Of a stretch of DNA of 64,000 nucleotides, positions 28,987 to 48,752 are shown piece after piece (position 1 is the stretch's first letter; every line of letters begins with the position of its first letter). The notes under the pieces were generated by a model. That model had not been told where the DNA came from. It did no database searches and saw nothing but the letters and a program-made list of their open reading frames with translations. The position numbers were made by a program, and so were the translations under genes. Origin of the DNA: Acidobacteriota bacterium (lineage in GTDB: Bacteria > Acidobacteriota > UBA890 > WLXD01); contig CAXWPL010000001.1 in assembly GCA_963666215.2 (NCBI GenBank), positions 1 to 64,000 on the forward strand, read 5' to 3'.

Positions 28987-29187
28987 TTACTCGGCCTCCG
29001 CAAGTCGCTGCTGTTCTTCGAACCAGGCAACCAGCCTGTCTTTCTTGAAGCGCCACTGACCGGCGACTTTGTTGCCGGGGAGCTTCCCCTCGCGCGCCAT
29101 CCGATACACGGTCGACTTGTGTAGGCGGAGGTACTTAGCGACCTCCTCCAGTGTCATGATCGTCGGTCGCGTTTCGCGATCGGCCAT
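28987..29187 (-). CDS. Excisionase/BldC-like HTH protein #2
   Basis: GGAGG RBS; IMTLEEVAKYLRLHKSTVYRMAREGKLPGNKVAGQWRFK. Confidence 0.9.
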   Translation of the reverse strand: MADRETRPTIMTLEEVAKYLRLHKSTVYRMAREGKLPGNKVAGQWRFKKDRLVAWFEEQQRLAEAE

Positions 29188-29267
29188 TGAGATTCCTCCC
29201 CTGCCCAAGAATTCCTTCATCACAGGTGTTTCCAAGTCATCAGAATCGATACTTATAACGTCGGTAG

Positions 29268-29296
29268 ACACTACGTCTTGCAGTTCAGACTGTCAA
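29268..29296 (-). promoter_or_regulatory. Candidate sigma70 promoter of HTH #2
   Basis: TTGACA-17 nt-TAGTGT on the minus strand. Confidence 0.55.
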
Positions 29297-29521: not shown

Positions 29522-30388
29522 CTAGAAATAGATGCGGTCCTCGCCGATGATCTCGGCGCCGTCGACCGTGCGGAAGACCACCCGTATCAAGCCCTCGTCG
29601 GCGTGCGGCTCCAGGTCGAACATCGAGTAGTGGATGGGTCCCAGAGACAGGGCGGGCGGCGCGTACTTCACAGTCTTGAATCCGATTTGCCGATGACGGA
29701 AGTCGCCCTTGTCGACGTTGAAGCGTCGCGAGAACAGCGTCGTGAACGGACGCTGCATCAGTGCCTGATTACGGCGGTCGTGCAGCCGCTCGCGCTCCAT
29801 GATGTAGAGATCGACGGTCCCGGAGGCGGTTACAGGCCTTCCGAGCCAGTTCTCCAGGACGAAGAAGACATCAAGAGTACGCATGCCGTCGACGTAGGCC
29901 GACAATGTGCGGAACTTGTAGGCTTCGTCGCTCCACCAGGCGGCCGGAACGCCACGGGCCTCGGCGATCTGATCGAGCTCGGCTGTGGTCACCGAACCGC
30001 TCTCGCCGAAGGTTGCGCTCGAGTTGCCCTGGAGTTGCCCCATCGCCGAGTCCTGGTGAACGAGGTTGCCGTTCGACGACAGGAAGTCGAGCTGTACGCG
30101 CACCGCGACGGGTCGTGAGTTGGGATTGGTTACGGCCACGTTCCAGGCGTAGGGAACAGTGCCGCCAGCCGGGTCGCCCCAGTCGATGTCTGGAGTGGCG
30201 ACGTGGATCGGTGGACCGGCGGCGATCGAAGCGCCGGCGCTGCCGGCCATTTGGACGGCGGAAGTCGCCGACGCGACCGGCAGAACGAAGGCCTCGGTCG
30301 GGAGTGAGCTAGCTGGTGCCGCGGACGCGACAACCAGACAGGCGAGGGTAACGACCCAACAGACGGAGAGTGCGCGGTGTTTGCTCAT
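29522..30388 (-). CDS. Exported hypothetical protein
   Basis: Signal peptide MSKHRALSVCWVVTLACLVVASAA followed by beta-rich sequence; no family recognised. Confidence 0.65.
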   Translation of the reverse strand: MSKHRALSVCWVVTLACLVVASAAPASSLPTEAFVLPVASATSAVQMAGSAGASIAAGPPIHVATPDIDWGDPAGGTVPYAWNVAVTNPNSRPVAVRVQLDFLSSNGNLVHQDSAMGQLQGNSSATFGESGSVTTAELDQIAEARGVPAAWWSDEAYKFRTLSAYVDGMRTLDVFFVLENWLGRPVTASGTVDLYIMERERLHDRRNQALMQRPFTTLFSRRFNVDKGDFRHRQIGFKTVKYAPPALSLGPIHYSMFDLEPHADEGLIRVVFRTVDGAEIIGEDRIYF

Positions 30389-30636
30389 GGGGCGATCGTA
30401 GTCACCGTCGATGGCTCGCGTCACCCTCGTTCAAACGCAGCGTCAAGAACCGGTGGCCATGTATGGCCGCGGTCCATCGAGTGCTGGTGTAGGCGTCCAC
30501 GGCGAGGTCAGGAGCGGCCCCATCATCGCGCTGGCGACGGTGGGTGTCGTTTGGGGTTCGGAGCTGCGCGCCGCGCCGCTAGAATCGATATCTGCTCGTC
30601 AAAGGCACCTCCCTCCGGACACTTCTTGGAGCCCGT

Positions 30637-32127
30637 ATGTCCGCTGCCAGCACTGCTAGCGGGGCGCCGATCGGCCCGAAACGCGGGCTCAGACGACGTC
30701 GCCCGCAGGTGCGCTTGGCTGTGGCGCTGCCGTTCGTTACCGGCCTCCTGGCGCTGGGCGTGGGTTTGTACGCCTTTCAAGTGGGCCGCGCCGAGTTGAT
30801 CGCACTGGTGCCGCCGCGCGAAGCCGCGCGGGCCGGATCCACGGCTGTGGCTTCGTGGTGGTGGCTCTTCAAGATGACCACGATCGGAGGCCTCATCGGG
30901 TTGGCGATCGCTGTCGCTTTCACTCGCCAGCTGCACACGCTCGCGCGGCGAACCGAGTTCCTGGCGCTGCGTAATTTCAGCTTTCCGGTGGAGCTCGAGA
31001 CCGATGGCGAAGTGGCGCCGCTGGTAAATGCGATCAACGGCCTGCTGCACTCCGTCCGTGAGTACGCTCGTCATTCGGTTTCCGACGGCGCGGTTTCTTT
31101 GAGTCGCGACGGCCGAGTTTTGGCGATCAACCCGAGGGCCGCCGTAGCGCGGGGCGTCGACGCCGGGGCGGTCATTGGCGAGCCCTTTGCCAGGCTGCTA
31201 CCTCCGGTGGCCGCCAACGAGGAGATTCGGCTCACGTTGACGCGCTCCCTCGAGAGCAGCGAGCCGTTCGATCTCGTCGGCATGACATGGGTGAACACTC
31301 GTGGCCAGAGCCTCGAGGTCGATCTGCAAGGGACGGTGTTGGCGGGCGACGAGTCGATCATCTCGCTGCTGCTGGTGTTCGACGCTGACCGGGACCTCGA
31401 GAACGTGCAGCGGCAGGTCTCTCGCGCCCACCGGCTGATGGTCATAGGCGGCTTCGCTGCCGAGTTGGCGCACGAGATCCGCAACCCGTTGAGCTCCGTC
31501 ACAGGCCTCGTGGAGCTGCTTCACGATCGCCTCCCGTCCGACGATCCCGGACACCGGCATCTCGAAGTTCTCGGTCGCGCGGCCGGCCGCATCGACCGGC
31601 TGGTTGGCCAGCTCCTCGACCTGACGCCAACCGAGATCCACGATCTGCGTTCCGCCGATCTGACCGGCCTCGTCGCCGACGTCTGCGAGCTGGTTGGCTA
31701 CGACGGCGAGTCGGTCGCGCTGGTCGAGAGCTACGTTGCCGAGCCTCTGCCGATACGGGTAGACCCCGATCGCCTGGCCCGGGCGATCGAGAACCTGGTG
31801 CGCAACGCGCGAGCGCATACACCGGTCGACGGCAGGGTGACGGTCTCAACCCGCTGCGTCGAGGCATCGGCCGTGGTTGAGGTGGCTAACACCGGGTCCT
31901 ACATCGCCCCCGAGGAACATGAGCGCATTTTCCAGCCCTTCGTCTCGGGCCGCGCCGGCGGTACCGGGTTGGGGCTGGCCATCGCCCAGCAGATCGTGTT
32001 CGCGCACGGGGGCGAGTTGTCGGTACGCAGTGAGCGCGATAGCGGCACTGTCTTCACGATTCGTTTACCCATGGAGAAGGTCGACAGCGGAGCACCCTCC
32101 GCGGGAGCACAGCGCCATGCCGCGTAG
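30637..32127 (+). CDS. Membrane sensor histidine kinase (HAMP-like, PAS, HisKA, HATPase)
   Basis: Two TMs; H-box LAHEIRNPL, N-box NLVRNA, IFQPF and GTGLGLAI. Confidence 0.92.
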   Translation: MSAASTASGAPIGPKRGLRRRRPQVRLAVALPFVTGLLALGVGLYAFQVGRAELIALVPPREAARAGSTAVASWWWLFKMTTIGGLIGLAIAVAFTRQLHTLARRTEFLALRNFSFPVELETDGEVAPLVNAINGLLHSVREYARHSVSDGAVSLSRDGRVLAINPRAAVARGVDAGAVIGEPFARLLPPVAANEEIRLTLTRSLESSEPFDLVGMTWVNTRGQSLEVDLQGTVLAGDESIISLLLVFDADRDLENVQRQVSRAHRLMVIGGFAAELAHEIRNPLSSVTGLVELLHDRLPSDDPGHRHLEVLGRAAGRIDRLVGQLLDLTPTEIHDLRSADLTGLVADVCELVGYDGESVALVESYVAEPLPIRVDPDRLARAIENLVRNARAHTPVDGRVTVSTRCVEASAVVEVANTGSYIAPEEHERIFQPFVSGRAGGTGLGLAIAQQIVFAHGGELSVRSERDSGTVFTIRLPMEKVDSGAPSAGAQRHAA

Positions 32128-33501
32128 CCGACTACTCATCGTCGACGACGATCCCGAAGTTCGTTACACGCTGCGCGAGGCCCTCGTGCCGCAGGGCTTC
32201 GACGTCGACGAGGCTGGCACCGCCTCCGAGGGTGTCGAGCGCGTTCGCGAGCAGGTGTATGACCTGGTTCTGCTCGACCAGCGGCTACCGGATGCCGAAG
32301 GTCTCAGCGTGGTCGGCGAGCTGCGGCTACTGCAGCCTCAGCTGCTCATCGTCATGATGACGGCACACGGCACTCGGAAGACGGCGATCCAGGCCGTGGA
32401 TCGGGGCGCCTATGACTTCTTTCACAAGCCCATCAAGCTGGATGAGTTGCGCGTGGTGATCACCCGAGCCCTCGAGCGCCGAGCTCTGGGGCGAGAGGTG
32501 GGTCGCCTGCGCGCGCGCGTTCCTCGGAGGACACCTTCGGCAGCATCATCGGCCGCTCGGCGGCGATGCGCGAGGTCTTCGCGACGCTCGAGAAGGTGGT
32601 GAGCACCAACACCACCGTGCTTGTGCTAGGCGAGAGCGGCACAGGCAAAGAGCTCGTCGCTCAGGCGGTCCACGAGCGGAGCGGCCGTGCGCAAGAGCCG
32701 TTCGTCAAGCTCAACTGCGTCGCGATTCCACAAACCCTGTTGGAGAGCGAGTTATTCGGTCACGAGAAGGGGGCTTTCACGGGCGCTCATCAGCGCAGGA
32801 TCGGCAAGTTCGAGCTCGCCGACCGCGGATCCATCCTGCTCGACGAGATCGGCGACATGAGTCTGGAGACGCAGGCCAAGATCTTGCGCGTGCTCCAGGA
32901 GCGCGAGTTCGAACGGGTTGGGGGCGTCGAGACCGTGGCGGTGGATGTGAGGGTGATCGCGGCGACGAACCGCGACCTCGTGCGTGAAGTCGAGCGCGGA
33001 CGTTTCCGTGAAGACCTCTACTTCCGACTGAACGTAGTGACCGTTACGCTGCCCGCGCTGCGTCAGCGGCCCGAGGACATTCCGTTGCTGGCGCACCACT
33101 TCATGGCGGAGGCGGCGGAGTCGCAGGGCAAGCCTGTGGCGAAGATCTCGCCGGGCGCGATGGCGGCGCTCGCTGCCTACGACTGGCCCGGAAACGTGCG
33201 GCAACTGCGCCACGCTCTCGAACGCGCCGTCATCTGGGCGGAGGCGGATGAGATCCGCCGTAGCGATCTGCCTGGTGAGGTGGTGGCGGGCTCCCTGGTC
33301 ACGCCGCGCAGCCTGGCGGCGCGCGATTCGGGCGATCTCCCGGCCCTGATGGTGCAAATCGAGCTCGATCTCGTCACCGACGCGCTCCGCCAGGCGGGCG
33401 GCGTGCAGGCAACCGCCGCACGACGCCTCGGCATCAGCGAACGTTCGATGTGGCACAAGGTCAAGAAGCACAACATCGACGTCGAGCGCCTCAAGGCGTA
33501 A
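32117..33501 (+). CDS. Sigma54-dependent NtrC/PilR-type response regulator, frameshifted at a (GC)n run (32509-32519)
   Basis: REC domain (LIVDDD, LLDQRLP, MTAHG, KP) in one frame; AAA+ domain ([40 protein letters not shown]) and Fis-type HTH in another. Confidence 0.9.
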
Positions 33502-33633
33502 GCCGCATCACCTCAGGTGACCAACGCTTGGCCGCGCTCGACCATGGCGGTTGCCCGGACCTCTCGCGCTGTGCGGCGCGCCGGCCGCGAGGGTCATCCG
33601 CGGCCACTCTTCCCACGGGTTGTGTTGCCATCA

Positions 33634-33648
33634 CTACAAAATTTGTAG
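33634..33648. promoter_or_regulatory. Palindrome, candidate upstream activator sequence for the bEBP
   Basis: CTACAAA-A-TTTGTAG perfect inverted repeat about 240 bp upstream of a sigma54 promoter. Confidence 0.55.
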
Positions 33649-33669
33649 ATCGACGTTCAAGTGCTTTGT

Positions 33670-33682
33670 TATCAACGATTTA
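33670..33682 (+). promoter_or_regulatory. IHF consensus site
   Basis: TATCAA-CGAT-TTA matches WATCAA-N4-TTR and lies between the palindrome and the promoter. Confidence 0.6.
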
Positions 33683-33876
33683 ATCGGACTCATGGTTGCC
33701 ATTTCGAGGATGAGGCTGCACGGAACAGGGGACGGCGTCGCTGTGTCGGGATGTCCCGACTTGACCCGAGGGGGAGGTGAATGACTTTTCTCGATCTTTG
33801 TAAGTCATTCTGATCCAATCACTTACAGCCGATCTTGGTGTCGCCCAGACCTCGATCGAGCCGATCTGGCTGCGTC

Positions 33877-33892
33877 TGGCACGAGCGTTGCT
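33877..33892 (+). promoter_or_regulatory. Sigma54 (-24/-12) promoter
   Basis: TGGCACG-AGCG-TTGCT, an exact consensus match with GG-N10-GC spacing, directly downstream of a bEBP gene. Confidence 0.85.
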
Positions 33893-33989
33893 CTTCTCTT
33901 CGGCCGTGACGGGCTTGCGTTCGTCACGCTGCCGTACCCACGGCGACCCGCCTCCCGCGGCAAGACAGAGAAGAAGGGGAGCAATCACC

Positions 33990-34208
33990 GTGCAGAAGCT
34001 CTATACCACCGAGACGCTCGCTGAGCTGTTGCAGGTCTCGCCTCGCACCATTCGGCGCGAGCGCAAAGAAGGCCGGCTACCGTTCGTGCGCGTTCGAGGA
34101 CAGATCCGTTATCGCGAGAGCGATGTACGTGCCTATCTCGAGCGCAACGCCAGTATGTCGATGGACGAAGACGTCCTTGGTTCAGCGCTGAGTTGGCGCG
34201 AGGGTTGA
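33990..34208 (+). CDS. Excisionase/BldC-like HTH protein #3
   Basis: AGGGGAG RBS and GTG start; LYTTETLAELLQVSPRTIRRERKEGRLPFVRVRGQIRYRESDV. Confidence 0.88.
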   Translation: MQKLYTTETLAELLQVSPRTIRRERKEGRLPFVRVRGQIRYRESDVRAYLERNASMSMDEDVLGSALSWREG

Positions 34209-34323
34209 TCTCGAACGGCACGGCTCGCGCCGTATCGATCGCGACCTCTCCAGGGACGGACCGGTCGCAGCAACTCGAGCTCAGTCACGAGCGCACCGCG
34301 AAGCAGCAATAGGGAGGCACACC

Positions 34324-34542
34324 ATGACGGGTCTTTACACCACAGAAAGTCTTGCCGACTACCTGCAGGTATCGCCGCACACGGTTCGGCGTGAGCGCGA
34401 GGCGGGACGGTTGCCCTTCATCCGTATCCGCGACCTCGTGAGGTATCGCCCCGAGGATGTCGAGGCGTACCTGTCACGTCAGTCACACGATCGCTACGTT
34501 GCACCGCTGAACGGTCACGGCAGGATCGCGGCTTTCGGCTAG
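34324..34542 (+). CDS. Excisionase/BldC-like HTH protein #4
   Basis: GGGAGG RBS; LYTTESLADYLQVSPHTVRREREAGRLPFIRIRDLVRYRPEDV. Confidence 0.88.
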   Translation: MTGLYTTESLADYLQVSPHTVRREREAGRLPFIRIRDLVRYRPEDVEAYLSRQSHDRYVAPLNGHGRIAAFG

Positions 34543-34608
34543 AGCAGCTTCGTACGCAACCCGGGATCCTGCTGCCACCGCATGTGGCGAGCGCTCCTGG
34601 TCGAGTCT

Positions 34609-35235
34609 ATGGAGACCCAATTGAGCCAGGCCAAAGGCTTCACTTTGATGGAGGTGGCCGTCATGCTCGCGGTGTTATCCGTTCTCGCCGGCCTTACGGT
34701 CGGAATGGTCGGCAACGTTGTCGAGGATGGGCAGGTGATTCGCGCCCGCGAAGAAGTCGGGCAGATCGGCCGCGCGGTGACCAGTTTCTATGCCGATACT
34801 GGTCAGTTCCCGCAAACTCTCGACGGCAGCCAGTCGACTTTGTCTGCGCAGCTGATCGGCTTGCTGGCCAGTAGCGCGGCGATGCCCGACGTTACCGACG
34901 GCACAGCGTTGTGGGTCCAAGCTCGCGCCGATCGGATGGACGCGCATCTTGCAGCCAACTACCGCGGCTACACGCCGCGCAGCGAGCTGCTGTCGCACGG
35001 CTGGAACGGGCCCTACTTGGCTCCCGAGCTCGGCGACGATCCCTGGGGGCGGGCCTATCTGATCAACGTGTTCTACCGCGACGCTCGCGATGCTCTCGTC
35101 GAGGCCGACGGTACGCCGCTCGGAGCGGTGTACGCGATCTCGGCCGGACCGAACGGAGTCATTGAGACGCCTTATTACCAGCGCCGCGACAGCGCCACTA
35201 TCTTCGGTGACGACATCGGATTCCGACTCCAATGA
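34609..35235 (+). CDS. Prepilin-type (GspG-like) protein 1
   Basis: Class III signal KG|FTLME; WNGPYL..DPWG..SAGPNG..GDD. Confidence 0.88.
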   Translation: METQLSQAKGFTLMEVAVMLAVLSVLAGLTVGMVGNVVEDGQVIRAREEVGQIGRAVTSFYADTGQFPQTLDGSQSTLSAQLIGLLASSAAMPDVTDGTALWVQARADRMDAHLAANYRGYTPRSELLSHGWNGPYLAPELGDDPWGRAYLINVFYRDARDALVEADGTPLGAVYAISAGPNGVIETPYYQRRDSATIFGDDIGFRLQ

Positions 35236-36002
35236 GGACAACAACCAAGAACCCAATCGCCGGCTTTACGCTTGTTGAGGTCGCCATCATCCTGCTCGTG
35301 ATCGCCATTCTGTCGGCGATCGTGACTCCGGTGCTCAGCAGCACCATCGCCGACGCCAGACTTTCGGCGGCGAAATCGGAGATGAGCACGATCGTGCGAG
35401 CCTTCCGCGAGCTGCTTGCGGACCTCGGCTGCCCGTTCGTGCCACGGCGCTCCACCACCGGCAACGTTTACCGCGACCGCGCCAAGGGTGTTGCCGCTGA
35501 CATTCCACCCGTTGCGCCCCCTATGGGTGGGGACTTCGATCTGCGGCCCACCGCGCCGTTGGGGTGCGAGGCTAGCGCGGTGTGTGGTGGCGAGCCGGTC
35601 GCGATTCTCGTGACCTCAGGCGACATTCCCTCGGTAGGGCCAGAGGGCGACTGGAGTTGGGCCGATCCCGTCGATCGGGATGAGGTCGATTTTCTCGAGT
35701 ACTACCTGGTGAGCAACACGCCGGGGGGTAAGGAAGAGCTCGCGTTTCCGACCGCGGCGGAGTGTGGCTCGCGTGAGTTCGGAGGCGCCCACAACTGGCG
35801 CGGCGCGTACACGACACCGGGCACGGGCGATCCTTGGGGGAACCGATACATGATCAATTCGCTCTTTCTGCCGGGCTTCGGTACCGACGACGTGGTGATC
35901 CTGTCGGCCGGGCCCGATCAGGAGATCGACACCGAGTTCGCCGAGGACGGTCTTGTTGCCGGCGGCGACGACCTGGTGCTGTTGATCGCGCCGGGACGCT
36001 AG
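35232..36002 (+). CDS. Prepilin-type (GspG-like) protein 2
   Basis: AG|FTLVE; WRGAY..DPWGNRY..SAGPDQ..GGDD; four Cys. Confidence 0.88.
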   Translation: MRTTTKNPIAGFTLVEVAIILLVIAILSAIVTPVLSSTIADARLSAAKSEMSTIVRAFRELLADLGCPFVPRRSTTGNVYRDRAKGVAADIPPVAPPMGGDFDLRPTAPLGCEASAVCGGEPVAILVTSGDIPSVGPEGDWSWADPVDRDEVDFLEYYLVSNTPGGKEELAFPTAAECGSREFGGAHNWRGAYTTPGTGDPWGNRYMINSLFLPGFGTDDVVILSAGPDQEIDTEFAEDGLVAGGDDLVLLIAPGR

Positions 36003-36084
36003 AAGGCGACAGCTGTAGGAATTCTTCGCAAGAAGCGCCACGAGGGTGGCGCAGAGAGACAGGGATCCTGGGGAGGCAAAACGA

Positions 36085-36924
36085 ATGCGACATCAACAAC
36101 AACAACTACGCGGTACACGGCAGCAGGGCTTCACGCTCGTCGAAGTCACGATCATCGTGACGACGCTGGCGATTCTCTCGGCCATCATGCTGCCCCAGAT
36201 GGGCGTCTACCTGCGCGAAGCGCGGTTCGCACGAGTGCGCGAGGACGTTGGCGCGATCGGCGTCGCCATCATGCAGCTTCTCAAGGACACTGGAGAGAGC
36301 GCGCTGTACAAGGAGCCCCAGGGCAACTGGCGCTCGCCTCAGCGAATCGGCTCCAACGATGGCGGCGAGCCCATCGGGCTGCTCGTAGGCGACGGTGACA
36401 CACCCGACGGCAACGACTACAGCTGGCGCGCGTCCTTGGACGACCATGTGCCGGCCGCATCGACCGACTTCGGCAACGTATGGATTCCCAGCGGCTTGGT
36501 CGACACGTTCGCCAATCACTTGATCCACAACAACCCCGGAGGAGGCGACAACTGGAATGGCGTAGGGTCGCCTTGGGCGCGCTATCGCACGCCAGCCGAG
36601 ATGACTTCCGGCGATCACAGCTCGGGCCAACCCAACGGGCTGCAGTTCGACCCGTCCGCTGGCGAGGGGTTCAACTCGGACTTCGCCTGGCGCGGTCCCT
36701 ACCTCGACGCGGTTCGCCCCGATCCTTGGGGGAATCGCTATTCCGCCAACGTGCTCTGGTTCACGATTCCCCAGGGCGGCAACTCCTCGGGTTTCAACCG
36801 CCCGATCGTGGTCATCTCGGCCGGGCCCGACGAGGAGATCGACACCGACTTCTCTTCATCCGGCGGCTTCGTGGTCGGCGACGACGATATTGCGTACCCA
36901 GTGGCCTTCGGCTCATTGCGCTAG
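36085..36924 (+). CDS. Prepilin-type (GspG-like) protein 3
   Basis: GGAGG RBS; QG|FTLVE; WRGPYL..DPWGNRY..SAGPDE..GDDD. Confidence 0.9.
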   Translation: MRHQQQQLRGTRQQGFTLVEVTIIVTTLAILSAIMLPQMGVYLREARFARVREDVGAIGVAIMQLLKDTGESALYKEPQGNWRSPQRIGSNDGGEPIGLLVGDGDTPDGNDYSWRASLDDHVPAASTDFGNVWIPSGLVDTFANHLIHNNPGGGDNWNGVGSPWARYRTPAEMTSGDHSSGQPNGLQFDPSAGEGFNSDFAWRGPYLDAVRPDPWGNRYSANVLWFTIPQGGNSSGFNRPIVVISAGPDEEIDTDFSSSGGFVVGDDDIAYPVAFGSLR

Positions 36925-36972
36925 CCCAGCGATCCTCCCCTGCCAAGCGATCGTGATGCCGAGAGACGGACG

Positions 36973-37803
36973 ATGATGAGATCGAGATCAGTAGACCGCC
37001 AACATAGCCTGCAAGGCGCGAGCGCCGCAGCTGCCGCCGGTGCCGTCGACCGGGAGCGTGGCTTCACGCTGGTCGAGGTGACGATCATCCTGACAGTGCT
37101 GACGGTGCTCGGTCTGACGCTTCTTCCCGGCATCGGTAACTACCTGCGCGAAGCCCGACTGGCTCGTGCCCGCGGTGATCTCAAGGCGATCTCGAGCGCT
37201 GTGCATGTTTTTCTGGCCGACACCGGCGAGCAGGCGTTCCGCTGCCGCGGCAACGGCAGCCGCGATTCCACCGGCTGGGGCTCGCACAACCCCTCGAGCC
37301 CAGATCCCGACCAGTTGGTGTGGACGCTGGTGAGCGATGGAGACCTGCCCGACGAGCCCAAGAGCGGCAGCGTTGACGGTGCCTGGCGCTGGCGCCGCAC
37401 GGTCGATGGTCATCAGGTCGACACGATTTCCAACCACCTCGTTCAGAACACACCAGGCAACGATCCCGGGACCCATTACCGCACCGCCAAGCATCTCGAC
37501 AACGCGCCGCCCGAGCAGTTCGCGTTCCAGCAAATGTCGGGCTTCAACGCGCGCTTCGCGTGGCGCGGACCCTACCTGTCGGGCCCAGTACGCTCCGACC
37601 CCTGGGGCAATCGTTATGCGATCAACGTGCGATTCCTCGACCCAGTCGCCGACAGCGTTGGCGGGCCAGAGAGCGGCTACACGGAGGATGTCTTCGTGCT
37701 CTCGGCAGGCCCAGACGAGGAAATTGATACTCTTTATGCTGCCGATGGCGTCGTACCTGGTGACGACGATCTGATTATGGTGATCTCTGGGGACAGCCGA
37801 TGA
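36973..37803 (+). CDS. Prepilin-type (GspG-like) protein 4
   Basis: RG|FTLVE; WRGPYL..DPWGNRY..SAGPDE..GDDD. Confidence 0.88.
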   Translation: MMRSRSVDRQHSLQGASAAAAAGAVDRERGFTLVEVTIILTVLTVLGLTLLPGIGNYLREARLARARGDLKAISSAVHVFLADTGEQAFRCRGNGSRDSTGWGSHNPSSPDPDQLVWTLVSDGDLPDEPKSGSVDGAWRWRRTVDGHQVDTISNHLVQNTPGNDPGTHYRTAKHLDNAPPEQFAFQQMSGFNARFAWRGPYLSGPVRSDPWGNRYAINVRFLDPVADSVGGPESGYTEDVFVLSAGPDEEIDTLYAADGVVPGDDDLIMVISGDSR

Positions 37804-38516
37804 CTGAAGTCGAGGGTTCGGGTAGCCGGTGCCGCCGGTGTTGGCCGGCGCCATCGGGCTCGCACCGGAAGGCTCGCGGCGAAGCCGGCTTCACGCTGCT
37901 CGAGATCACGATCATTCTGGCCGTAGTCGCCATTCTCGGGCTCATCATGGCGCCCGCCGTGCTGAATTTGATGAATTCGTCGCGGGTTGCCCGCGCGCAA
38001 ACCGACGTGCAAGCGATCGCCGATTCGGTTCGCGACTTTTACGTCGACAACGGGTTCTTCCCTCAGTACGCCGATGCCGCTCGCACCCGCCCGATTCGTT
38101 TGCTGGTTACGGCGGGAGCCGCTCCCGAATCCGCCTCGGCGACGATCGACGGCTGGCAGCTGACTGATCCTTCGCAGATCGATCGTGTTGGCAACCAGCT
38201 GGCCAACAACCGCCCTTCGTTCGGTGCCATCGGCTATCCGCTCAAGCGAGCCAATGGTGAATCGGGCTGGAACGGCCCGTATTTGCATGGCGAGATTGGC
38301 CCCGATCCGTGGGGCAACCGATACGTGATCAATGTCGAGTTCCTATCGGTGAATCTCGGCGGCTACGAGGTCAACGGTGTGCAGCCCAAGCGCGCCGTGT
38401 GGGTGTTGTCGGCCGGGCCCGACGGTGTGATCGACACGATCTATCCGACAGTGTCTGAACAGTCGATCGGGTTGGCCGCGGCGAGCCCATTGGACATCAC
38501 CGCTCGCATTCAGTAG
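37800..38516 (+). CDS. Prepilin-type (GspG-like) protein 5
   Basis: AG|FTLLE; WNGPYL..DPWGNRY..SAGPDG. Confidence 0.88.
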   Translation: MTEVEGSGSRCRRCWPAPSGSHRKARGEAGFTLLEITIILAVVAILGLIMAPAVLNLMNSSRVARAQTDVQAIADSVRDFYVDNGFFPQYADAARTRPIRLLVTAGAAPESASATIDGWQLTDPSQIDRVGNQLANNRPSFGAIGYPLKRANGESGWNGPYLHGEIGPDPWGNRYVINVEFLSVNLGGYEVNGVQPKRAVWVLSAGPDGVIDTIYPTVSEQSIGLAAASPLDITARIQ

Positions 38517-38903
38517 CTCAGCTCGCACCGCTCGCTGATCTCCCAGCGAGCGCGGCTGACGAGCTCCTCGTCCTCGACTTCTCGAGGAAGAGATCCACGA
38601 CGACTAACGGAAGACCCATGTGCGCCGAGCGGGCCGGGGTCGTCGGTCGTCCGGTCATTTGCTCTCGACCGCAGGGGCCGCGTACGCACCATAGGAGTGT
38701 GACCCCGCGAAATCAGGCCCGCCGTTGTCGGTTGCTGTCGATCGTCCAGCGCCCAGGCAACGGCCCGGGTGTCAGCGGTGGCCACAGCGGATAGGAGGAA
38801 TTGCGGTTACTCAGGACGCCCGGTAGGGTACCCGGATGGTTGACGTCGAGCCTTGCAGGTAGGGCTTGGCCCGGTTGAGATACGATTGAGCAGGCGGCGT
38901 TCG

Positions 38904-39122
38904 ATGGCGAAAGACACGCTTTTTACGACCTATAGCTTGGCCCAGTACCTACAGGTCAGCACACGGACCGTGCAGCGAGAGGTCGAGCGCGGTCGCATGC
39001 CGTTCGTCCTCGTGAGCGGTCGCCGTAGATACCGTAAGGCCGACGTCGAGGCCTATCTGCAGAGCCGGCTGCAACGGTCGCGCTTCCGTCTTATCCAGGG
39101 CGGCAGAAGTAACTTCGGCTAG
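38904..39122 (+). CDS. Excisionase/BldC-like HTH protein #5
   Basis: LFTTYSLAQYLQVSTRTVQREVERGRMPFVLVSGRRRYRKADV; C-terminal FRLIQGG. Confidence 0.87.
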   Translation: MAKDTLFTTYSLAQYLQVSTRTVQREVERGRMPFVLVSGRRRYRKADVEAYLQSRLQRSRFRLIQGGRSNFG

Positions 39123-39329
39123 AGCGCCAGCGGAACCGGTCGTCCGCAAGCCCGTTGAGGGTGTTGCCTGCGGCGGCCAGGATCGGCCGCGTGGTCGCCA
39201 AACCTAGCAACGAGGCCGATAGCTGGACACACGGGGTCAACGCCTCCCGTCGGTAGTTGTCGCTGCGTCCCCAGCCGTGACATCGTCGCGCTCGATAACT
39301 CGCCCCCCATCTTCCCCCCGGCGGTCTCC

Positions 39330-39605
39330 GTGCCCAAGCAGCGGCTCGACACTCTCGACACCCTCGCGGAGCGCTTCGGCCTACCGTGGCGGACGATCGT
39401 TCGCGAGGTATTGCGTACGCGCCTGCCGTACGTAAGCGTCGCTGGGAGCTGGCGGTTCCGCGAGCGCGATGTGGAGGTCTGGCTACAGCGCGTCGGCGAC
39501 CTTCCTCGTCTCGAGCTGCTCACGGGAGGTAGAACAGCGAGGGCACCGGGTGAACGCTCCCGTCGCCATGGCGCAGACCAGGAAGCTCGTGGTCGGCACG
39601 ACTAG
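39330..39605 (+). CDS. Excisionase/BldC-like HTH protein #6 (divergent)
   Basis: LDTLDTLAERFGLPWRTIVREVLRTRLPYVSVAGSWRFRERDV; followed by LELLTGG. Confidence 0.78.
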   Translation: MPKQRLDTLDTLAERFGLPWRTIVREVLRTRLPYVSVAGSWRFRERDVEVWLQRVGDLPRLELLTGGRTARAPGERSRRHGADQEARGRHD

Positions 39606-39761
39606 AGACCTGCCGCGGCGCCAATCGAGGTCCTGTCCTGGATTCTGTGGCCAAGCGCGGACAAACGTGGCCAGCGCCGCTTGAGAGACGGTAGGAACGC
39701 GTCTAGGCTCTCCCCTCGTTTGGATGAGCTTCACTAAAGAGCTGGGAAGAGGCGACGACTC

Positions 39762-39977
39762 TTGAGCGAGAGTCTTCGAGTTGAGACGGTCGCGAGCTTG
39801 ACTGAGCGGGTCGGTATGAGCCGCGAAACCATCGTTCGCGAGGTCCGCGAGGGGAGTCTGCCGTACGTCAACGTCGGTGGCCATTGGCGATTCCGCGATT
39901 GCGACGTGGCCTACTGGAAGCGCAATCAGCGGCGAGCCGGTTTTCGCGTCATCGCAGGCGCCGCCGAAACCGCCTAG
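39762..39977 (+). CDS. Excisionase/BldC-like HTH protein #7 (divergent)
   Basis: VETVASLTERVGMSRETIVREVREGSLPYVNVGGHWRFRDCDV; followed by FRVIAGA. Confidence 0.8.
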   Translation: MSESLRVETVASLTERVGMSRETIVREVREGSLPYVNVGGHWRFRDCDVAYWKRNQRRAGFRVIAGAAETA

Positions 39978-39978
39978 G

Positions 39979-40957
39979 TGTGTTTTCTAAGTAGGTTGTT
40001 CACATCGGGGCTCACTTCTGAGATCAATGGGGTTGTTCAAAAGACTCCACGACCTCAGAAGGAGCGCCCGATGCAGCTGCATGGTAACGCCCGCACGACG
40101 CCGTATATACGCCGAGAGATGGTCCGCCGAGTCCGGGAGCGGGCGGAGCCCGTGACGGAAACGGCGGCGGCGCTCGGCGTGTCGGCTCGAACGGTTTACA
40201 AGTGGCTGGATAGATACGAGCGAGAAGGTGAGGCCGGGCTGCTCGATCGATCAAGCCGGCCGACGTGCTGTCCGCACGCAACAAGCGCTGGAGTTGTGAG
40301 GCAGATCGACAAGCTACGTCGGCGGCGACTGACGGCCTGGCAGATCAGCCGAAGGTTGGCTGTGCCGCGCTCGACCGTCTCGGCGTGGCTGAAGCGGCTC
40401 GGACTCGCCAAGCTTGATGCGCTCGAGCCCAAGCCCGAGATCGTTCGCTACGAGTACGAGCACCCCGGTGACCTACTGCACCTGGATACGAAGAAACTGG
40501 CCCGTATCCGGCGACCTGGACACCGCATCCACGGCGACCGCTCCAAGCGGGCCTACGGCGTCGGCTGGGAGAACGCCCACGTCGCTATCGACGATCACTC
40601 TCGGGTGGCGTACGTCGAAGTGCTGCCCGCCGAAGACCAACACACCTGCACAGCGTTCCTGCAGCGAGCCGTCGAGCACTTCGCTTCGATGGGAGTAGCG
40701 GTGCGCCGAGTGATGACAGACAACGGGCCTGGCTACGTCTCGAAGCGCTTCAATCGCCTATGCCATCAACTCGAGATCCGGCACATTTACACCCGGCCCT
40801 ACACCCCCAGAACCAACGGCAAAGCCGAACGCTTCATCCGCACACTCAAGGAGCAGTGGGCCTACGGCACCTGCTACCAGACCTCAGCTCGACGTACTCG
40901 AGCTCTACGGCCCTGGCTCAACCACTACAATCGTCACCGTCCCCACGCCGGCATCGG
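39979..40957 (+). mobile_element. IS481-family element, copy 1, right end deleted
   Basis: Starts TGTGTTTTCTAAGTAGGTTGTTCAC after cCTAGg; nearly identical to copy 2 up to ...GCCGGCATCGG, then diverges. Confidence 0.92.
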
Positions 40958-41285
40958 GGAGTTCGATCGCACCCTCACTCTCGACCCGGGTCAGATCGAT
41001 GCCTACGTCAATAAGGGCCTGATCCTGATGCGCGGTGGCGAGTACTCCAAAGCCGTGGGCGTGTTCCAAGCGGCGATCGCGAGGGACCCGAATCATGCCC
41101 TGGCACACTACAACCTCGGTCTCGCCTACGAAGAGAGCGAGCATTTTGACCAGGCGATCGATGTCTACGCCATGTTCATGCGTCTCGGTGGTGCCGAGCA
41201 CGGGGAGCTGGCTACATACGTTGGCCGCCGTATCGAATGGCTCGAAACACTGCCCGGTAGCCGCTACGGTGGCTCGCAACGCTGA
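40071..41285 (+). CDS. IS481 transposase fused in frame to a TPR-repeat C-terminal fragment
   Basis: LHLDTK, VMTDNG and TNGKAERF (DDE) up to HAGIG, then EFDRTLTLDP..AYVNKG..AHYNLGLAY TPR repeats. Confidence 0.8.
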   Translation: MQLHGNARTTPYIRREMVRRVRERAEPVTETAAALGVSARTVYKWLDRYEREGEAGLLDRSSRPTCCPHATSAGVVRQIDKLRRRRLTAWQISRRLAVPRSTVSAWLKRLGLAKLDALEPKPEIVRYEYEHPGDLLHLDTKKLARIRRPGHRIHGDRSKRAYGVGWENAHVAIDDHSRVAYVEVLPAEDQHTCTAFLQRAVEHFASMGVAVRRVMTDNGPGYVSKRFNRLCHQLEIRHIYTRPYTPRTNGKAERFIRTLKEQWAYGTCYQTSARRTRALRPWLNHYNRHRPHAGIGEFDRTLTLDPGQIDAYVNKGLILMRGGEYSKAVGVFQAAIARDPNHALAHYNLGLAYEESEHFDQAIDVYAMFMRLGGAEHGELATYVGRRIEWLETLPGSRYGGSQR

Positions 41286-41322
41286 GGCCCAACCGGCGGC
41301 CAAGCGATGCGATGCTGTTGGC

Positions 41323-41907
41323 TTGTGCTTGGCGATCGCCCTTGTCGTGATGGCGCCGGGAGCCGCGAGCGCACAGGCTCGCCCGTGCGTGTATCACGAC
41401 ACAGACGGCCGCATCGTGATCACCGATCGACTCTCAGATCCCCGCTGCGCCCACCTGCGCCCGCGCCCCGCAGCGGCATCTCGAGCTACGCCAAGACGGA
41501 TCTCGCTGGCGACGGCCGAGCTGGTTGATCTCACACACCGCACCGCGCTCGAGTTCGGCGTGGACCACCGGCTCATCGAATCGGTCGTCGAGATGGAATC
41601 TGCCTACAACCCACGGGCGGTCTCGCGAACCGGCGCCATGGGGCTCATGCAGTTGATGCCCGACCTGGCGCGGCAGTACGGCGTGCGGAACGCGTTCGAT
41701 GCGCGTGAGAATCTTCGCGCCGGCATTCTGCACATGAGAGCGCTGCTGCGAAAGTATGAGTCGGATGTTCGGCTCACGCTCGCGGCCTACAACGCCGGGG
41801 AGGGGAGCGTGAAGCGATACGGTGGAGTGTCCCCGTTCCGCGAGACGCTCGACTACGTTGCTCGAGTGCTGGCGCGATATCGTCAGCGAGTCAGAGCCGA
41901 GACGTAG
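41323..41907 (+). CDS. Lytic transglycosylase (SLT domain), exported; start uncertain
   Basis: ESAYNPRAVSRTGAMGLMQLMP, AAYNAGEG and ETLDYV motifs. Confidence 0.9.
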   Translation: MCLAIALVVMAPGAASAQARPCVYHDTDGRIVITDRLSDPRCAHLRPRPAAASRATPRRISLATAELVDLTHRTALEFGVDHRLIESVVEMESAYNPRAVSRTGAMGLMQLMPDLARQYGVRNAFDARENLRAGILHMRALLRKYESDVRLTLAAYNAGEGSVKRYGGVSPFRETLDYVARVLARYRQRVRAET

Positions 41908-42038: not shown

Positions 42039-42752
42039 GTGGGTGGGTTTCTCGCCGAGCGCCGGCGCCATTCGGAGCTGATGGACGCACCGGACATCGC
42101 TGCCAGTGAACACCGACGCGCCCTCGCCGGATTGGAGCGCATCAACCGGCTCTCCGCTGCCGTCCGACCGATTTGGAACCAGATCGCCCCCCTCATCGTG
42201 CGCACTGGCGGCGCTCTCCGAGTTCTCGACGTTGCGTGCGGAGGCGGTGAAGTCGCCGTCGGGCTGCAGAAACGCGCCCTCCGCGCCGGGCTCGACATCG
42301 AGGTTTTCGGTCTGGATATCAGCTCGTTGGCGGTCCAGGTCGCTCGCGAGAGGGCGTCGGCCGAAGGACTGGTGATGCGGTTTGCCGTTGGCGACGCTGT
42401 TGCCACACCGATCGACATCCACGAGCACTACGATGTCGTGATGAGCAGCCTGTTCCTGCACCACCTCGACGAACACGACGCCCTCCGCCTGCTGCGCCAT
42501 TCGGCGGCCGCGGCAACGCGTCGCGTGCTCGTCGTCGACCTGCGCCGCTCTCTGCGGGGCTACGTCCTGGCCGTGCTCGGCACGCGCGCTCTGAGCCGCT
42601 CGCCGGTTGTGCACTACGATGGCCCCGCCTCGGTACGCGCCGCATTCCATATCGAAGAAGCATGCCGGCTGGCCGAGCGTGCCGGCCTGCAGAACGTGCG
42701 AGCGGAGGCTCGTTGGCCGTTCCGATTTCTTCTCTCGGCGGATCCTGCATGA
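42039..42752 (+). CDS. SAM-dependent methyltransferase associated with a type III PKS
   Basis: ELMD, VLDVACGGG, SLFLHH and DGPASVRAAF. Confidence 0.87.
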   Translation: MGGFLAERRRHSELMDAPDIAASEHRRALAGLERINRLSAAVRPIWNQIAPLIVRTGGALRVLDVACGGGEVAVGLQKRALRAGLDIEVFGLDISSLAVQVARERASAEGLVMRFAVGDAVATPIDIHEHYDVVMSSLFLHHLDEHDALRLLRHSAAAATRRVLVVDLRRSLRGYVLAVLGTRALSRSPVVHYDGPASVRAAFHIEEACRLAERAGLQNVRAEARWPFRFLLSADPA

Positions 42753-44131
42753 ACTCCTTCGCTGTCACGGAAGATCGCCGCGAGCTCGGGTGCGGCGTAT
42801 TCGACGTCGTTGTGGTTGGCGCCGGACCGGCGGGCTCGATGGCGGCGCTGGAATGCGCTCGCGCAGGCATGTCGGTGCTCCTGGTTGATCGCAGTCGGCA
42901 TCCCCGAGCCAAGGTATGCGGCTGCTGTCTCACTCCCGGCTCGCTCGACGCCCTTACGGCCGCGCTCGGATGCGCCGAAGTGGATGCATTGGGTGGCCTA
43001 CCGCTGCGTCGCGTGCGGCTCGCGGCTTGGGGCCGGCGGCTCGAACTGCCGCTGGCGCGGGCCATGGTGTTGTCGCGCGCGCGTCTCGACAGCGTGCTGC
43101 TCGAGCGAGCCCGAGACGCCGGGGCACGGATTCTGTTCCCTGCCACGGCGAGCCCCGGTGCAGTGACCGCCGAATGGCGCGAGGTTCGCCTGCGTCACGA
43201 GGGTTCATCGATGCGGGTTCGCGGCCGTGTTGTCCTGGCTGCCGACGGGCTGAGCGGAGGCTTTCTGCGCGCCTGCCGAAAGCAGGCACTCGCGCAGGTT
43301 GGCGGTGCGTCGCAGGCCGTTGCGAAGGGTGAATCCGCCGCCGAACGTCCGGCGTTGGGACACGTCGGCGCCGCCTTGATACTGCCTTCTACGCAGGCAA
43401 ATCCTGATTACGCTCCCGGCGTTGTCTACATGGCCGCGGGCTCGGGGGGATACGTGGGCGTAGTTCGCCTCGAGGACGGTCGCCTCAACATCGCCGCTTC
43501 GCTATCGAGCGACGCTCTGCGCCCCGAGGCCCAAGTCGGGGAGCGGAGGCGGCCGAAACTCGAAGGCGTGGTGGCGGGAATTCTCGCCGCGGCGGGGTTG
43601 CCGCCGATTGGCTTCGACCGCGTTGGAGCCCATGCCGACGGCCGCGCCAATTCCCGGCCGGCCGCGGTCGTCGAATCGATGACCGCCGAGCAGCCGTCGA
43701 CCGACGAGGCGGGACCACCGCTGCGACACTGGATGGCGACCCCAAGGTTGCGGACACGCCCAGGGCACCTGATGGCGCCGCGCGTGCTGGCCATTGGCGA
43801 CGCTGCCGGATTCTGGGAGCCATTCACCGGCGAGGGAATCGCGTGGGCGCTCAACTCAGGCCGCGAAGCGGCGGCCGCCGTTCCGGGGCTGATTCCACAG
43901 TGGCGAGCTGGCGAGGTCGAGGCCTGGGAGCAGGGGTTCAGGGCCCGGTTGCGGCGACGTCAGCGACACAGTCAGCGTGTCGCGGCTCTGGCTGGTCGAC
44001 CACGGCTCGCCGCTGCAGCCATGACACTGTTGAGTGCGTGGCCACACTCGCTCCATTGGTTGTTGCCCGGTCAGCAACTGACTGGACGTCGTGCATCGGG
44101 AAGCGCGCGGTCCGAGCGGGTGAACGCATGA
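42749..44131 (+). CDS. FAD-dependent oxidoreductase (geranylgeranyl reductase/monooxygenase family)
   Basis: VVGAGPAG, PRAKVCG, AADG and IGDAAGFWEPFTGEGI; ATGA overlaps on both sides. Confidence 0.87.
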   Translation: MNSFAVTEDRRELGCGVFDVVVVGAGPAGSMAALECARAGMSVLLVDRSRHPRAKVCGCCLTPGSLDALTAALGCAEVDALGGLPLRRVRLAAWGRRLELPLARAMVLSRARLDSVLLERARDAGARILFPATASPGAVTAEWREVRLRHEGSSMRVRGRVVLAADGLSGGFLRACRKQALAQVGGASQAVAKGESAAERPALGHVGAALILPSTQANPDYAPGVVYMAAGSGGYVGVVRLEDGRLNIAASLSSDALRPEAQVGERRRPKLEGVVAGILAAAGLPPIGFDRVGAHADGRANSRPAAVVESMTAEQPSTDEAGPPLRHWMATPRLRTRPGHLMAPRVLAIGDAAGFWEPFTGEGIAWALNSGREAAAAVPGLIPQWRAGEVEAWEQGFRARLRRRQRHSQRVAALAGRPRLAAAAMTLLSAWPHSLHWLLPGQQLTGRRASGSARSERVNA

Positions 44132-48416: not shown

Positions 48417-48745
48417 CGGTGACTCCGGTCGACGATCGAGATCACTTCGTCAATCCGCTGGTCGCGGATGGCTTCGTTGCCGCTCTGCACCGCCTCGACC
48501 ACGCAGTGGCGCAGGTGTCGATGCAGAATCGACTGGCCGACGCGTTGCAGTGCGCGCTCGGCCGAGCGCACCTGCGTGAGGATATCGATGCAATAGCGCT
48601 CGGCCTCGATCATCCGCTGAAGACCACGCACCTGTCCTTCGATGCGTCGCAGACGCTTGATCTCGTCGTCGTGTGGTACGCCGTGGCTTGGCGTGGTGGA
48701 GCCCGCGTTGGTTGCCTCGGCCGTCGAATCGTCGCGATCGCTCAT
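48413..48745 (-). CDS. csoR: CsoR-family copper-sensing repressor
   Basis: [23 protein letters not shown] (Cys, His, Cys ligands); overlaps the copA start. Confidence 0.92.
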
Positions 48746-48752
48746 GTGTCCA

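Follow-up and report, generated by a model that had tools for sequence, protein, structure and literature searches.

The locus and its genes

The window analyzed here is the first 64 kb of contig C1 from the genome of an uncultured, marine-type Acidobacteriota bacterium (G000; 4.65 Mb, 5 contigs, 91.7% complete). At positions 30637 to 41907 it contains a candidate type IV filament locus in which every gene is on the plus strand, as judged by open reading frame (ORF) calls and Pfam domains. The order is a PAS-domain kinase, an NtrC-type activator, a palindrome with an integration host factor (IHF)-like site and a sigma54 promoter, two small helix-turn-helix (HTH) genes (H1 and H2), five prepilin genes (P1 to P5), three more HTH genes (H3 to H5), an insertion sequence (IS) of the IS481 family, the remnant of a tetratricopeptide repeat (TPR) gene, and a lytic transglycosylase gene with an SLT domain. 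The features are as follows.

30637-32127, plus strand: PAS-domain sensor histidine kinase in a PilS-like role (Pfam PAS_4, HisKA, HATPase_c; positional orthologue in relatives)
32117-33501, plus strand: NtrC-type sigma54 activator (Response_reg, Sigma54_activat, AAA_lid_14, HTH_8), with the receiver and AAA+ domains in different frames
33634-33648, plus strand: palindrome CTACAAAATTTGTAG, CTACA-N5-TGTAG, within a conserved TGTAG-N6-CTACA-N5-TGTAG; presumed activator binding site
33670-33682, plus strand: IHF-like site TATCAACGATTTA, between palindrome and promoter
33877-33892, plus strand: sigma54 -24/-12 promoter TGGCACgagcgTTGCT, an exact match to the pattern TGGCAC-N5-TTGCT
33990-34208, plus strand: H1, small HTH_17 (excisionase/BldC-like) gene, 72 aa (HTH_17 58.9 bits, TIGR01764 44.8 bits)
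34324-34542, plus strand: H2, small HTH_17 gene, 72 aa (passes Pfam HTH_17 and TIGR01764)
34582-35235, plus strand: P1, GspG-like prepilin (T2SSG 30.6 bits; N_methyl just below the cut-off)
35232-36002, plus strand: P2, GspG-like prepilin (N_methyl 21.8 bits; T2SSG 18.8 bits, below the cut-off)
36046-36924, plus strand: P3, GspG-like prepilin (N_methyl 22.8 bits; no T2SSG match)
36973-37803, plus strand: P4, GspG-like prepilin (passes N_methyl; T2SSG 22.1 bits)
37800-38516, plus strand: P5, GspG-like prepilin (T2SSG 34.5 bits; N_methyl just below the cut-off)
38904-39122, plus strand: H3, small HTH_17 gene (passes Pfam HTH_17 and TIGR01764)
39330-39605, plus strand: H4, small HTH_17-like gene (HTH_17 24.6 bits, below the cut-off of 27; TIGR01764 21.5 bits against 28.8)
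39762-39977, plus strand: H5, small HTH_17 gene (passes both models; TAG stop within a CTAG at the left edge of the IS)
39973-40957, plus strand: IS481-family element, with about 70 nt of its right end missing (Pfam rve, LZ_Tnp_IS481)
39978-41285, plus strand: ORF of the IS481 transposase, fused in frame to TPR repeats (Pfam)
40958-41285, plus strand: C-terminal TPR remnant, MshN/PilW-like (tblastn match to the TPR protein of relative G001)
41302-41907, plus strand: SLT lytic transglycosylase (Pfam SLT 83 bits; orthologue directly after the TPR gene in 5/5 relatives)

A first-pass annotation, made from the sequence alone, had described this gene order and common orientation, and both stand. 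It had also stated that the window is without a secretin, an assembly ATPase, a platform protein, and a prepilin peptidase, which agrees with our window and genome scans (Pfam Secretin, T2SSE, T2SSF, and peptidase models). It had overlooked the frameshift in the NtrC-type gene, the truncated right end of the IS481 element, and three more HTH_17 genes in the window.

Profiles built from the window genes show how far these families are concentrated here. The locus holds five of the six strong pilin-family matches in the genome; the sixth is at C1:690816-691565, and the remaining pilin matches are weak. All five genome matches to the HTH subfamily are in the locus, and nothing else scores above 37 bits. 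The more general HTH_17 model has 16 matches in the genome, 8 of them within the window.

GspG-like prepilins

P1 to P5 are paralogues with mutual identities of 29-37% (alignment A1). They have in common a GFTL(V/M/L)E cleavage motif and the motifs W.GPY, DPWGNRY.IN, and SAGPD.EIDT. All five carry a class III signal, with cleavage between the G and F of G-F-x-x-x-E and a hydrophobic helix behind it, which occupies residues 4-55 in the model of P5. Pfam T2SSG is passed by P1, P4, and P5, is failed by P2, and does not match P3, and the N_methyl model is passed by P2, P3, and P4.

Mature P5 was modeled with AlphaFold2 on a 103-row alignment, giving a pLDDT of 94.2. In structural comparison by VIA-align, the top 8 rows for P5 are T2SS (type II secretion system) major pseudopilins (Z 5.8-8.4), and the first row that is not a GspG has a Z of 5.1. 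Against 3G20, 3FU1, 1T92, 4LW9, and 3GN9, which include GspG of enterohemorrhagic Escherichia coli (EHEC), EpsG, and PulG, the Z is 8.0-8.4 over 100-110 residues, a Z of about 8 being a middling value. The GspG fold match of P5 covers 100-122 residues, with a root-mean-square deviation of 2.7-4.7 Å and 19-22% identity. The locus pilins also share with GspG proteins (EpsG, PulG, XcpT) the class III signal Gly-Phe-Thr-Leu-x-Glu and the DPWGN.Y motif. However, at 217-292 aa against about 140 they have some 80-150 extra residues. Moreover, whereas a T2SS has one GspG, there are 5 to more than 15 GspG-like paralogues per locus, and no GspH/I/J/K-type minor pseudopilins are recognized at the locus. 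P1 to P5 are best described as GspG-like subunits with large insertions, and we do not read them as GspG orthologues.

The five prepilin genes overlap or nearly abut. This suggests that one transcript might extend from H1 to P5. Gaps of 100-400 nt precede H3, H4, H5, and the later pilins, so that these could be under control of their own.

Five small HTH proteins

H1 and H2 are preceded by strong Shine-Dalgarno sequences. Neither a signal peptide nor a pilin leader was detected in H1 to H5, so the proteins are predicted to be cytoplasmic, and their family membership implies that they bind DNA. H4 is the only one of the five that fails both general models, and it matches the HTH subfamily profile at 143 bits. 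The five proteins in the window are 35-65% identical to one another. Identity to the genes at the same position in relatives is 85-98% for H1, 77-88% for H2, 69-83% for H3, 58-75% for H4, and 56-65% for H5, and for the pilin orthologues it is 46-70%. By position and identity, the five HTHs are positional orthologues across the relatives. In H3 to H5, though in neither H1 nor H2, the HTH is followed by a conserved tail, (F/L)(R/K)(V/L)(I/L)xGG(R), as in RFRLIQGGR and LELLTGGR (for example at window positions 39080-39122 and 39500-39540).

The only PDB sequence matches to H1 are 6AMA (E 3e-5) and 6AMK (E 5e-5). The parts of PMC5859096 that deal with these entries present them as BldC-DNA structures, and describe Streptomyces BldC as oligomerizing head to tail on direct repeats. 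Thus, the closest solved relatives of the HTHs are BldC-DNA complexes, in keeping with their earlier designation as Xis/BldC-like. The locus HTHs resemble BldC in being proteins of about 70 aa with a winged HTH and without an effector or dimerization domain, and BldC provides their best PDB sequence matches. In contrast to BldC, they form a set of five paralogues in one operon-like locus, next to pilins and under sigma54 control. They also fail the BldC family model NF033787 (21.8-31.4 bits for H1 to H3, against a cut-off of 77; H4 and H5 unmatched), and the likeness is one of sequence.

Perhaps the HTHs form a BldC/Xis-like hetero-oligomeric assembly, arranged head to tail on direct repeats within the locus, and act as an architectural switch that sets which pilin blocks are expressed. 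The BldC structures are suggestive of this, as is the retention of five distinct paralogues, each as a positional orthologue. The spacer between P5 and H3 contains conserved blocks, and in 7/11 such spacers the repeat GG(A/T)CA-N5-GG(C/T)CA occurs about 115-140 nt before H3. However, this repeat is short, was found by eye and with a loose pattern, and is missing from the window. A predicted H1-H2 complex obtained "weak support": it scored 0.37, whereas none of 3 controls scored above 0.00, the partner had a pLDDT of 77 or more, and the runs had at least 82% of their contacts in common. In calibration, the mark for support was reached by 58/80 solved complexes and 2/110 mismatched pairs. At scores of 0.60 or less it was reached by 7/80 solved complexes and by both of the passing mismatches, so a pass in this range is more often wrong than right unless the complex is likely beforehand. 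The failed BldC family model also speaks against the switch, as does a 1.3-kb contig, L094, that has a single H1-like gene between pilins. We regard such a switch as doubtful.

Other signals in the region before and after H3 are less regular. T-rich, terminator-like tails follow H3 in several relatives, and a sigma70-like pattern before H3 matched 3/11 spacers. A TTGC-N17/18-TAGGGT spacing before H3, read by eye, is only a lead.

H1 has 64 relatives at E of 1e-5 or better in a large protein collection, about 40 of which are 77-100% identical. A second group consists of proteins of 64-67 aa that are about 60-75% identical to H1. For this second group, genomic context comes from one contig, L094 (GC 56%), which carries a pilin, an H1-like gene (60% identity), and another pilin, separated by gaps of 30 and 12 nt. 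On this evidence, the association of HTHs with pilins is present in at least one further lineage. Among 401 genomes across the phylum, genes of the H1/H2/H3 type occur in all ten other genomes of the same family, and elsewhere there are 2 weak matches (37-40 bits). Second copies of H1 are present in two of the relatives, at L099:9980-10429 (G006) and at L100:9971-10387 (G008), the latter preceded by a sigma54 promoter sequence.

Two-component system and sigma54 promoter

The palindrome upstream of H1 is unique in the window. In every relative locus that keeps the spacer between activator and H1, there is one TGTAG/CTACA element, always upstream of the sigma54 promoter. No extra copies were found before H3, the later pilins, or the machine genes described below, in the window or in the relative loci. 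The IHF-like site TATCAACGATTTA fits WATCAANNNNTTR, which we take to be the IHF consensus, and in the spacer alignment 3/9 genomes keep it exactly and 3 others differ from it at one position.

The sigma54 promoter is exact in all nine aligned relatives, in which it is 82-113 nt upstream of H1, and it is the sole exact sigma54 match in each relative locus that was scanned. When up to one mismatch was allowed, no extra sigma54 promoter was found within the locus at an intergenic position common to the genomes. The promoter has the -24 GG/-12 GC spacing and is adjacent to an activator gene with a Sigma54_activat domain (235.8 bits) whose translation includes the GAFTGA loop, although this gene is frameshifted here. 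The sigma factor itself is represented by two Sigma54_DBD (rpoN) genes in the genome. A scan for sigma70-type promoters between 33400 and 42000 gave 0 sites against 1.3 expected, and one for terminator-like structures gave 4 against 5.3 expected, so neither is informative. The window has two exact matches to TGGCAC-N5-TTGC, of which the locus promoter is one; the other, at 58156-58170, follows a gene for a GAF-domain sigma54 activator (56365-57885) and forms a separate sigma54 unit.

NtrC-family activators drive sigma54 promoters, and control of pilA by PilS/PilR and sigma54 is established in Pseudomonas, Myxococcus, and Geobacter. The present locus has the same succession of kinase, NtrC-type activator, sigma54 promoter, and pilin genes, all co-oriented. 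However, here two HTH genes come first after the promoter, and the pilin genes behind them are of the GspG-like kind. The kinase, which has a single PAS domain, differs from PilS in its membrane part, and the likeness is one of layout. With these qualifications, retention of the promoter in 9/9 relatives favors the original proposal of a filament pilin locus under a PilS/PilR-like two-component system and sigma54.

Conservation in related genomes

The five pilins were combined in a profile, with which 41 genomes were searched, that of the window among them. Full-length pilin matches are found in all ten other genomes of the same family (G001 to G010), with 13-26 matches in each and best E values of 1e-61 to 6e-83. 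The 30 genomes of other families have matches to the N-terminal pilin helix only, or none. In 8/10 relatives (G001, G002, G003, and G006 to G010), the kinase, activator, two HTHs, pilins, three HTHs, and more pilins are on one contig. The locus is cut by contig ends in the other two (G004 and G005), and its pieces fit the same arrangement (H3 to H5 on L015; H1 and H2 on L013 and G004:C380). On these matches, the cluster is specific to one uncultured family of Acidobacteriota.

The same pattern of two plus three HTH genes is also present in the metagenome contigs L087, L088, L089, and L093. The pattern is constant, whereas the number of pilins between the two HTH blocks varies (2 in L087 to L089, 5 in most). 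In L089, the kinase is in two fragments that directly abut H1, and the activator gene and the TGTAG/CTACA element are missing; this looks like another damaged copy. In G001, the first and later pilins are separated by an insertion (L007:17223-19820) that encodes a reverse transcriptase of 316 aa and a radical-SAM-like protein with a B12-binding part.

Wherever a contig reaches far enough, the upstream genes are as in the window: a SurA-like protein, NadE, a phosphoribosyltransferase, an M48 peptidase, a generic HTH_17 gene on the opposite strand, and a 300-aa protein without a family. This bears on the possibility that the HTHs are recombination directionality factors, belonging either to a decayed integrative element or to a recombinase that inverts pilins. 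The HTH_17/excisionase domain is typical of such factors, and lambda Xis, RdfS, and TorI are in the same domain family (TIGR01764 and HTH_17). Moreover, some downstream pilins face the other way in relatives, and the second promoter-H1 copy in G006 is about 4 kb from a large serine recombinase. In contrast to these factors, the locus HTHs have neither a partner recombinase nor att sites and keep a stable chromosomal position across five genera. There is no integrase or recombinase at 27-46 kb of the window, nor among the genes other than pilins and HTHs across the approximately 47-kb locus of G001. The only repeats found are those between paralogues, and none resembles att sites or inversion repeats. 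The housekeeping synteny (SurA-like, NadE, M48) is conserved in at least 7 relatives. The extra H1 copies in G006 and G008 have gene fragments and transposases as neighbors, and no pilin is closer than 10 kb. We consider a role in recombination highly improbable and reject it on the lack of an integrase and of att-like repeats and on the stable housekeeping synteny. The first-pass annotation had named a decayed element as the alternative to its HTH-pilin locus, and the locus thus fares well in this comparison.

Outside the family, pilins of the same kind form arrays of 4-11 genes in other Acidobacteriota (L021, L027, L040, L057, and L078) and in Terriglobia. Smaller sets are found in Lentisphaerota/Victivallales and on one Brocadiales contig, and more distant triplets are found in Planctomycetota. 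The HTHs are missing from all of these. The linkage of pilin array and HTH genes that was originally proposed is therefore kept within the family but broken in other lineages. The arrays in L057 and L027 are flanked by a secretin, an AAA_22 protein, TPR and PilM-like proteins, and a PAS kinase, and L027 also has an NtrC-type activator. These flanks, together with the arrays that are devoid of HTHs, imply that the machine and sigma54 control are old and that the HTHs are an addition.

Assembly machine in relatives

In 5/5 relatives searched, a co-oriented orthologue of the SLT transglycosylase (49-58% identity) is found about 8-15 kb beyond the last pilin. Its operon in G001, G003, and G006 encodes, in order, an ATP-binding cassette (ABC) transporter, a T2SSE ATPase, a T2SSF platform protein, a pilin-like protein, a PilM_2/GspL-like protein, a T2SSM-like protein, a protein of 210-250 aa, a secretin, an AAA_22 plus SPOR protein, the TPR protein, and SLT (Pfam and NCBIfam). 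The same machine order is present by homology in G002 and G010. The ATPase has an MshEN domain in the G006 gene. The pilin-like protein is 290 aa long, the PilM_2/GspL-like protein is about 560-590 aa long, and the 210-250 aa protein has a weak T2SSB match in G006. The best NCBIfam match of the secretin is MshL (203 bits against a cut-off of 250), that of the AAA_22 plus SPOR protein is a PEP-CTERM-associated ATPase (267 bits against a cut-off of 324), and that of the TPR protein is PilW. The ABC transporter, which has ABC_tran, ABC2_membrane, and ABC_transp_aux (GldG-like) components and is directly upstream of the ATPase in G001, G003, and G006 (L082 to L086), may belong to the system.

The tie between transglycosylase and filament that had been suggested for the window is thus strengthened, with SLT as the last gene of the machine operon in all five relatives. 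In contrast, the idea of an accessory locus without a machine of its own does not fit the relatives, which hold the ATPase, platform, and secretin genes between the HTH trio and TPR-SLT.

The MSHA (mannose-sensitive hemagglutinin)-type pilus represents the MSH class of the type IV filament superfamily, as set out in the sections of Denise et al. 2019 (PMC6668835) devoted to it. The relatives resemble this class in encoding an MshEN ATPase, a GspF/MshG-type platform, a secretin that best matches MshL, AAA_22 (compare MshM) and TPR (compare MshN) proteins, and several pilins. However, the locus pilins are GspG-like, and no MshA-type pilin was found in the relatives. The GspM-like and PilM/GspL-like proteins and the SPOR domain on the AAA_22 protein point instead towards T2SS/ExeA, and no equivalog model was passed. 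Sigma54/NtrC control and five embedded HTH_17 genes are further differences from the MSH class, and in the window the machine is deleted. By gene content, the intact system appears closest to the MSH class and T2SS.

IS481-linked deletion

The IS481 element, some 1,055 nt long when complete, is present in the genome as 41 copies with alignments longer than 900 nt, which for the most part share 99.8-100% identity, and as about 17 fragments. Two copies are in the window, at 39973-40957 and 55224-56202. The family assignment follows from an rve domain with a leucine-zipper N-terminus, the many copies, and the CTAG or TAG that precedes the left end in the copies printed, CTAG presumably being the preferred target of IS481. 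At the locus, the left end of the IS adjoins H5, whose TAG stop is contained in a CTAG. The right end is different: this copy ends at 40957, whereas 40 other copies read on.

Immediately beyond this point, positions 40959-41249 correspond to residues 352-448 of the 455-aa TPR protein of G001 (52% identity, tblastn). This match and the orthology of SLT identify the TPR remnant and the SLT gene as the end of the machine operon. In relatives, the corresponding position of the TPR gene is about 17 kb (G002), 20 kb (G006), 24 kb (G003 and G010), or 29 kb (G001) beyond the end of H5. A deletion linked to IS481, of roughly 17-29 kb by this comparison, thus appears to have taken the further pilins and the machine up to about codon 352 of the TPR gene.

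The lost genes were not found elsewhere in the assembly. A tblastn search with the machine proteins of G001 found no orthologue of the PilM/GspL-like, GspM-like, or 252-aa protein, and only distant matches to the ATPase (42-43%), platform (25-27%), secretin (26%), and AAA_22 protein (27%). The genome holds one secretin gene, one prepilin peptidase gene, and two platform genes. Of five strong T2SSE matches, four (three ATPase genes) are with the secretin, peptidase, and platform genes at C1:186-213 kb, and the fifth is on C2. The first-pass annotation had asked where gspD/E/F and pilD might be, and this cluster supplies the answer. It is the only pilus or secretion cluster of the genome, and within it an IS481 copy at 198350-199328 interrupts a GspE/MshE-like ATPase gene (C1:197838-200233).

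Four public runs from four studies cover positions 32000-40001 with 0-3 other letters per contig, and their contigs break at the IS. Over 10 kb, the four strains differ by 0-13 letters. In four runs of four studies, contigs that start at 40928 or 40941, which is 17-30 nt within the IS end, run through the junction into TPR-SLT.

Frameshifted activator

Compared with 6/6 relatives in alignment, the activator gene has a 1-nt deletion near 32526, in the linker. The frameshifted allele is also present in contigs of the public runs X1, X3, and X6. The frame would be restored by an additional G that follows 32521 in run X10, where it is seen on a single contig at a depth of 2.5. X10 is the most divergent strain, with 13 other letters. 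Because X1, X3, and X6 share the allele while the divergent X10 has the extra G, the frameshift is more likely to be a genuine difference between strains than an assembly error.

Given the loss of the machine, the frameshift in the activator of most strains, and the near-identity of the IS copies, the locus in this genome is most likely a remnant that was disabled recently. Alternately, it might be alive, with the five pilins made as an accessory set, as first proposed, and assembled by the type IV pilus machine at C1:186-213 kb. In its favor, none of the ten pilin and HTH frames is interrupted, positions 32000-40001 are nearly unchanged in the four runs, and one strain may have an intact activator frame, as seen at a depth of 2.5. 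Also, a prepilin peptidase, two platform genes, a secretin, and PilB/PilT-like ATPases are on the same contig. However, the activator is frameshifted in the window and in 3/4 runs, and the pilins of relatives are always accompanied by their own machine. The IS copies are so similar (99.8-100%) that the deletion may be too recent for frames to have decayed, and the GspE-like ATPase of the other cluster is itself interrupted by IS481. An active accessory set therefore appears improbable.

Proposed function

We think it probable that the stretch represents the promoter-proximal genes of a type IV filament cluster of the MSH/T2SS-like kind, reduced to a remnant by IS truncation, in which the BldC/Xis-like HTHs were second-tier regulators. 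In intact relatives, the PAS histidine kinase would phosphorylate the NtrC-type activator, which would bind the TGTAG/CTACA element and, helped by a bend at the IHF-like site, open the single sigma54 promoter. This promoter would transcribe H1 and H2 first and then the five GspG-like prepilins. After cleavage by a prepilin peptidase, the prepilins would be polymerized by the machine encoded downstream, which comprises the MshE-type ATPase, GspF, the PilM/GspL-like and GspM-like proteins, the secretin, the AAA_22 plus SPOR protein, TPR, and SLT. H1 and H2, and then H3 to H5, would serve as cytoplasmic DNA-binding regulators that pass the sigma54 signal on to H3 to H5, the further pilins, and the machine. 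In this scheme the gene content, promoter, conserved synteny, deletion, and frameshift are observed; the phosphorelay, co-transcription, and most of all the regulatory role of the HTHs are what we infer, from the known behavior of NtrC-family and PilS/PilR systems, from gene spacing, and from family membership.

Several observations weigh against this reading. The GspG equivalog model TIGR01710 is not passed by the pilins, which score 34-50 bits against a cut-off of 88.85 and match in the N-terminal part only. A genome-wide T2SSG scan found 6 places, none of them in the window. When the P5 model was used in Foldseek, ten chains of T2SS major pseudopilins came first, with weak E values of 0.03-0.12. 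The other-lineage pilin arrays lack the HTHs, and five such genomes give only generic H1 matches of 22-36 bits; since the pilin family forms arrays without them, the HTHs are evidently not needed for such filaments in general. The contigs that agree with the deletion junction do not prove it, since they extend over no more than 30 letters of the IS and the bar for bridging is 31. The assembly being 91.7% complete, a relocated machine might reside on unassembled DNA. No RNA run is among the public runs listed for the stretch. Finally, no pilin or HTH frame among the ten is broken, and the activator may be whole in X10; given these frames, the near-identical strains, and the X10 allele, the remnant could still serve the other machine at C1:186-213 kb.

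Neighboring genes

The locus is flanked upstream by housekeeping genes (mreBCD-pbp2-rodA, RNase G, a SurA-like protein, nadE, and an M48 peptidase) and downstream by genes for a methyltransferase, an FAD oxidoreductase, a type III polyketide synthase, and YceI. The window also includes the following features.

25585-25869, minus strand: more generic HTH_17 gene, outside the range of the first-pass annotation
28987-29271, minus strand: more generic HTH_17 gene, likewise outside that range
52284-52835, plus strand: more generic HTH_17 gene, likewise outside that range
42039-45357: three consecutive genes, for a methyltransferase, an FAD-dependent oxidoreductase, and a type III polyketide synthase, the first two of which also follow SLT in G002

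The HTH_17 gene at 28987 and the gene for a 300-aa protein without a family at 29522-30424 are conserved neighbors of the kinase in relatives. A Mutator-family transposase is at 12063-13325 on the minus strand. On the same strand, at 46107-48793, a CsoR-type repressor adjoins a heavy-metal P-type ATPase.

Conclusions

The usual description of a type IV filament locus has subunits and a machine, with the regulator lying outside. What appears to be new here is a fixed quintet of BldC/Xis-like genes inside a pilin array. A full-text search found no paper that links HTH_17/excisionase genes with pilin loci, but most subscription journals were outside its scope, so absence is unproven. Five tiny DNA-binding genes are built into the subunit array and are held across five genera while the number of subunits changes.

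The window itself holds a broken copy of the system. It shows cleanly how, in nature, the spread of an IS (41 long copies) can take apart an envelope machine, and public metagenomes reveal alleles that differ between strains.

It is conceivable, if unlikely, that the five paralogues are a dedicated regulatory module that co-evolved with GspG-like arrays, a hetero-oligomeric, DNA-shaping switch triggered by NtrC and sigma54 that chooses among up to about 15 pilins and hence determines the make-up of the filament. If the HTHs do set filament composition, the locus would offer a compact model, with five 70-aa proteins, one sigma54 promoter, and a few spacers, for how a cell chooses among pilin paralogues. 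If such a switch exists, it would add a hitherto undescribed layer to the control of type IV filaments, present in one family of Acidobacteriota and in at least one lineage of lower GC content.

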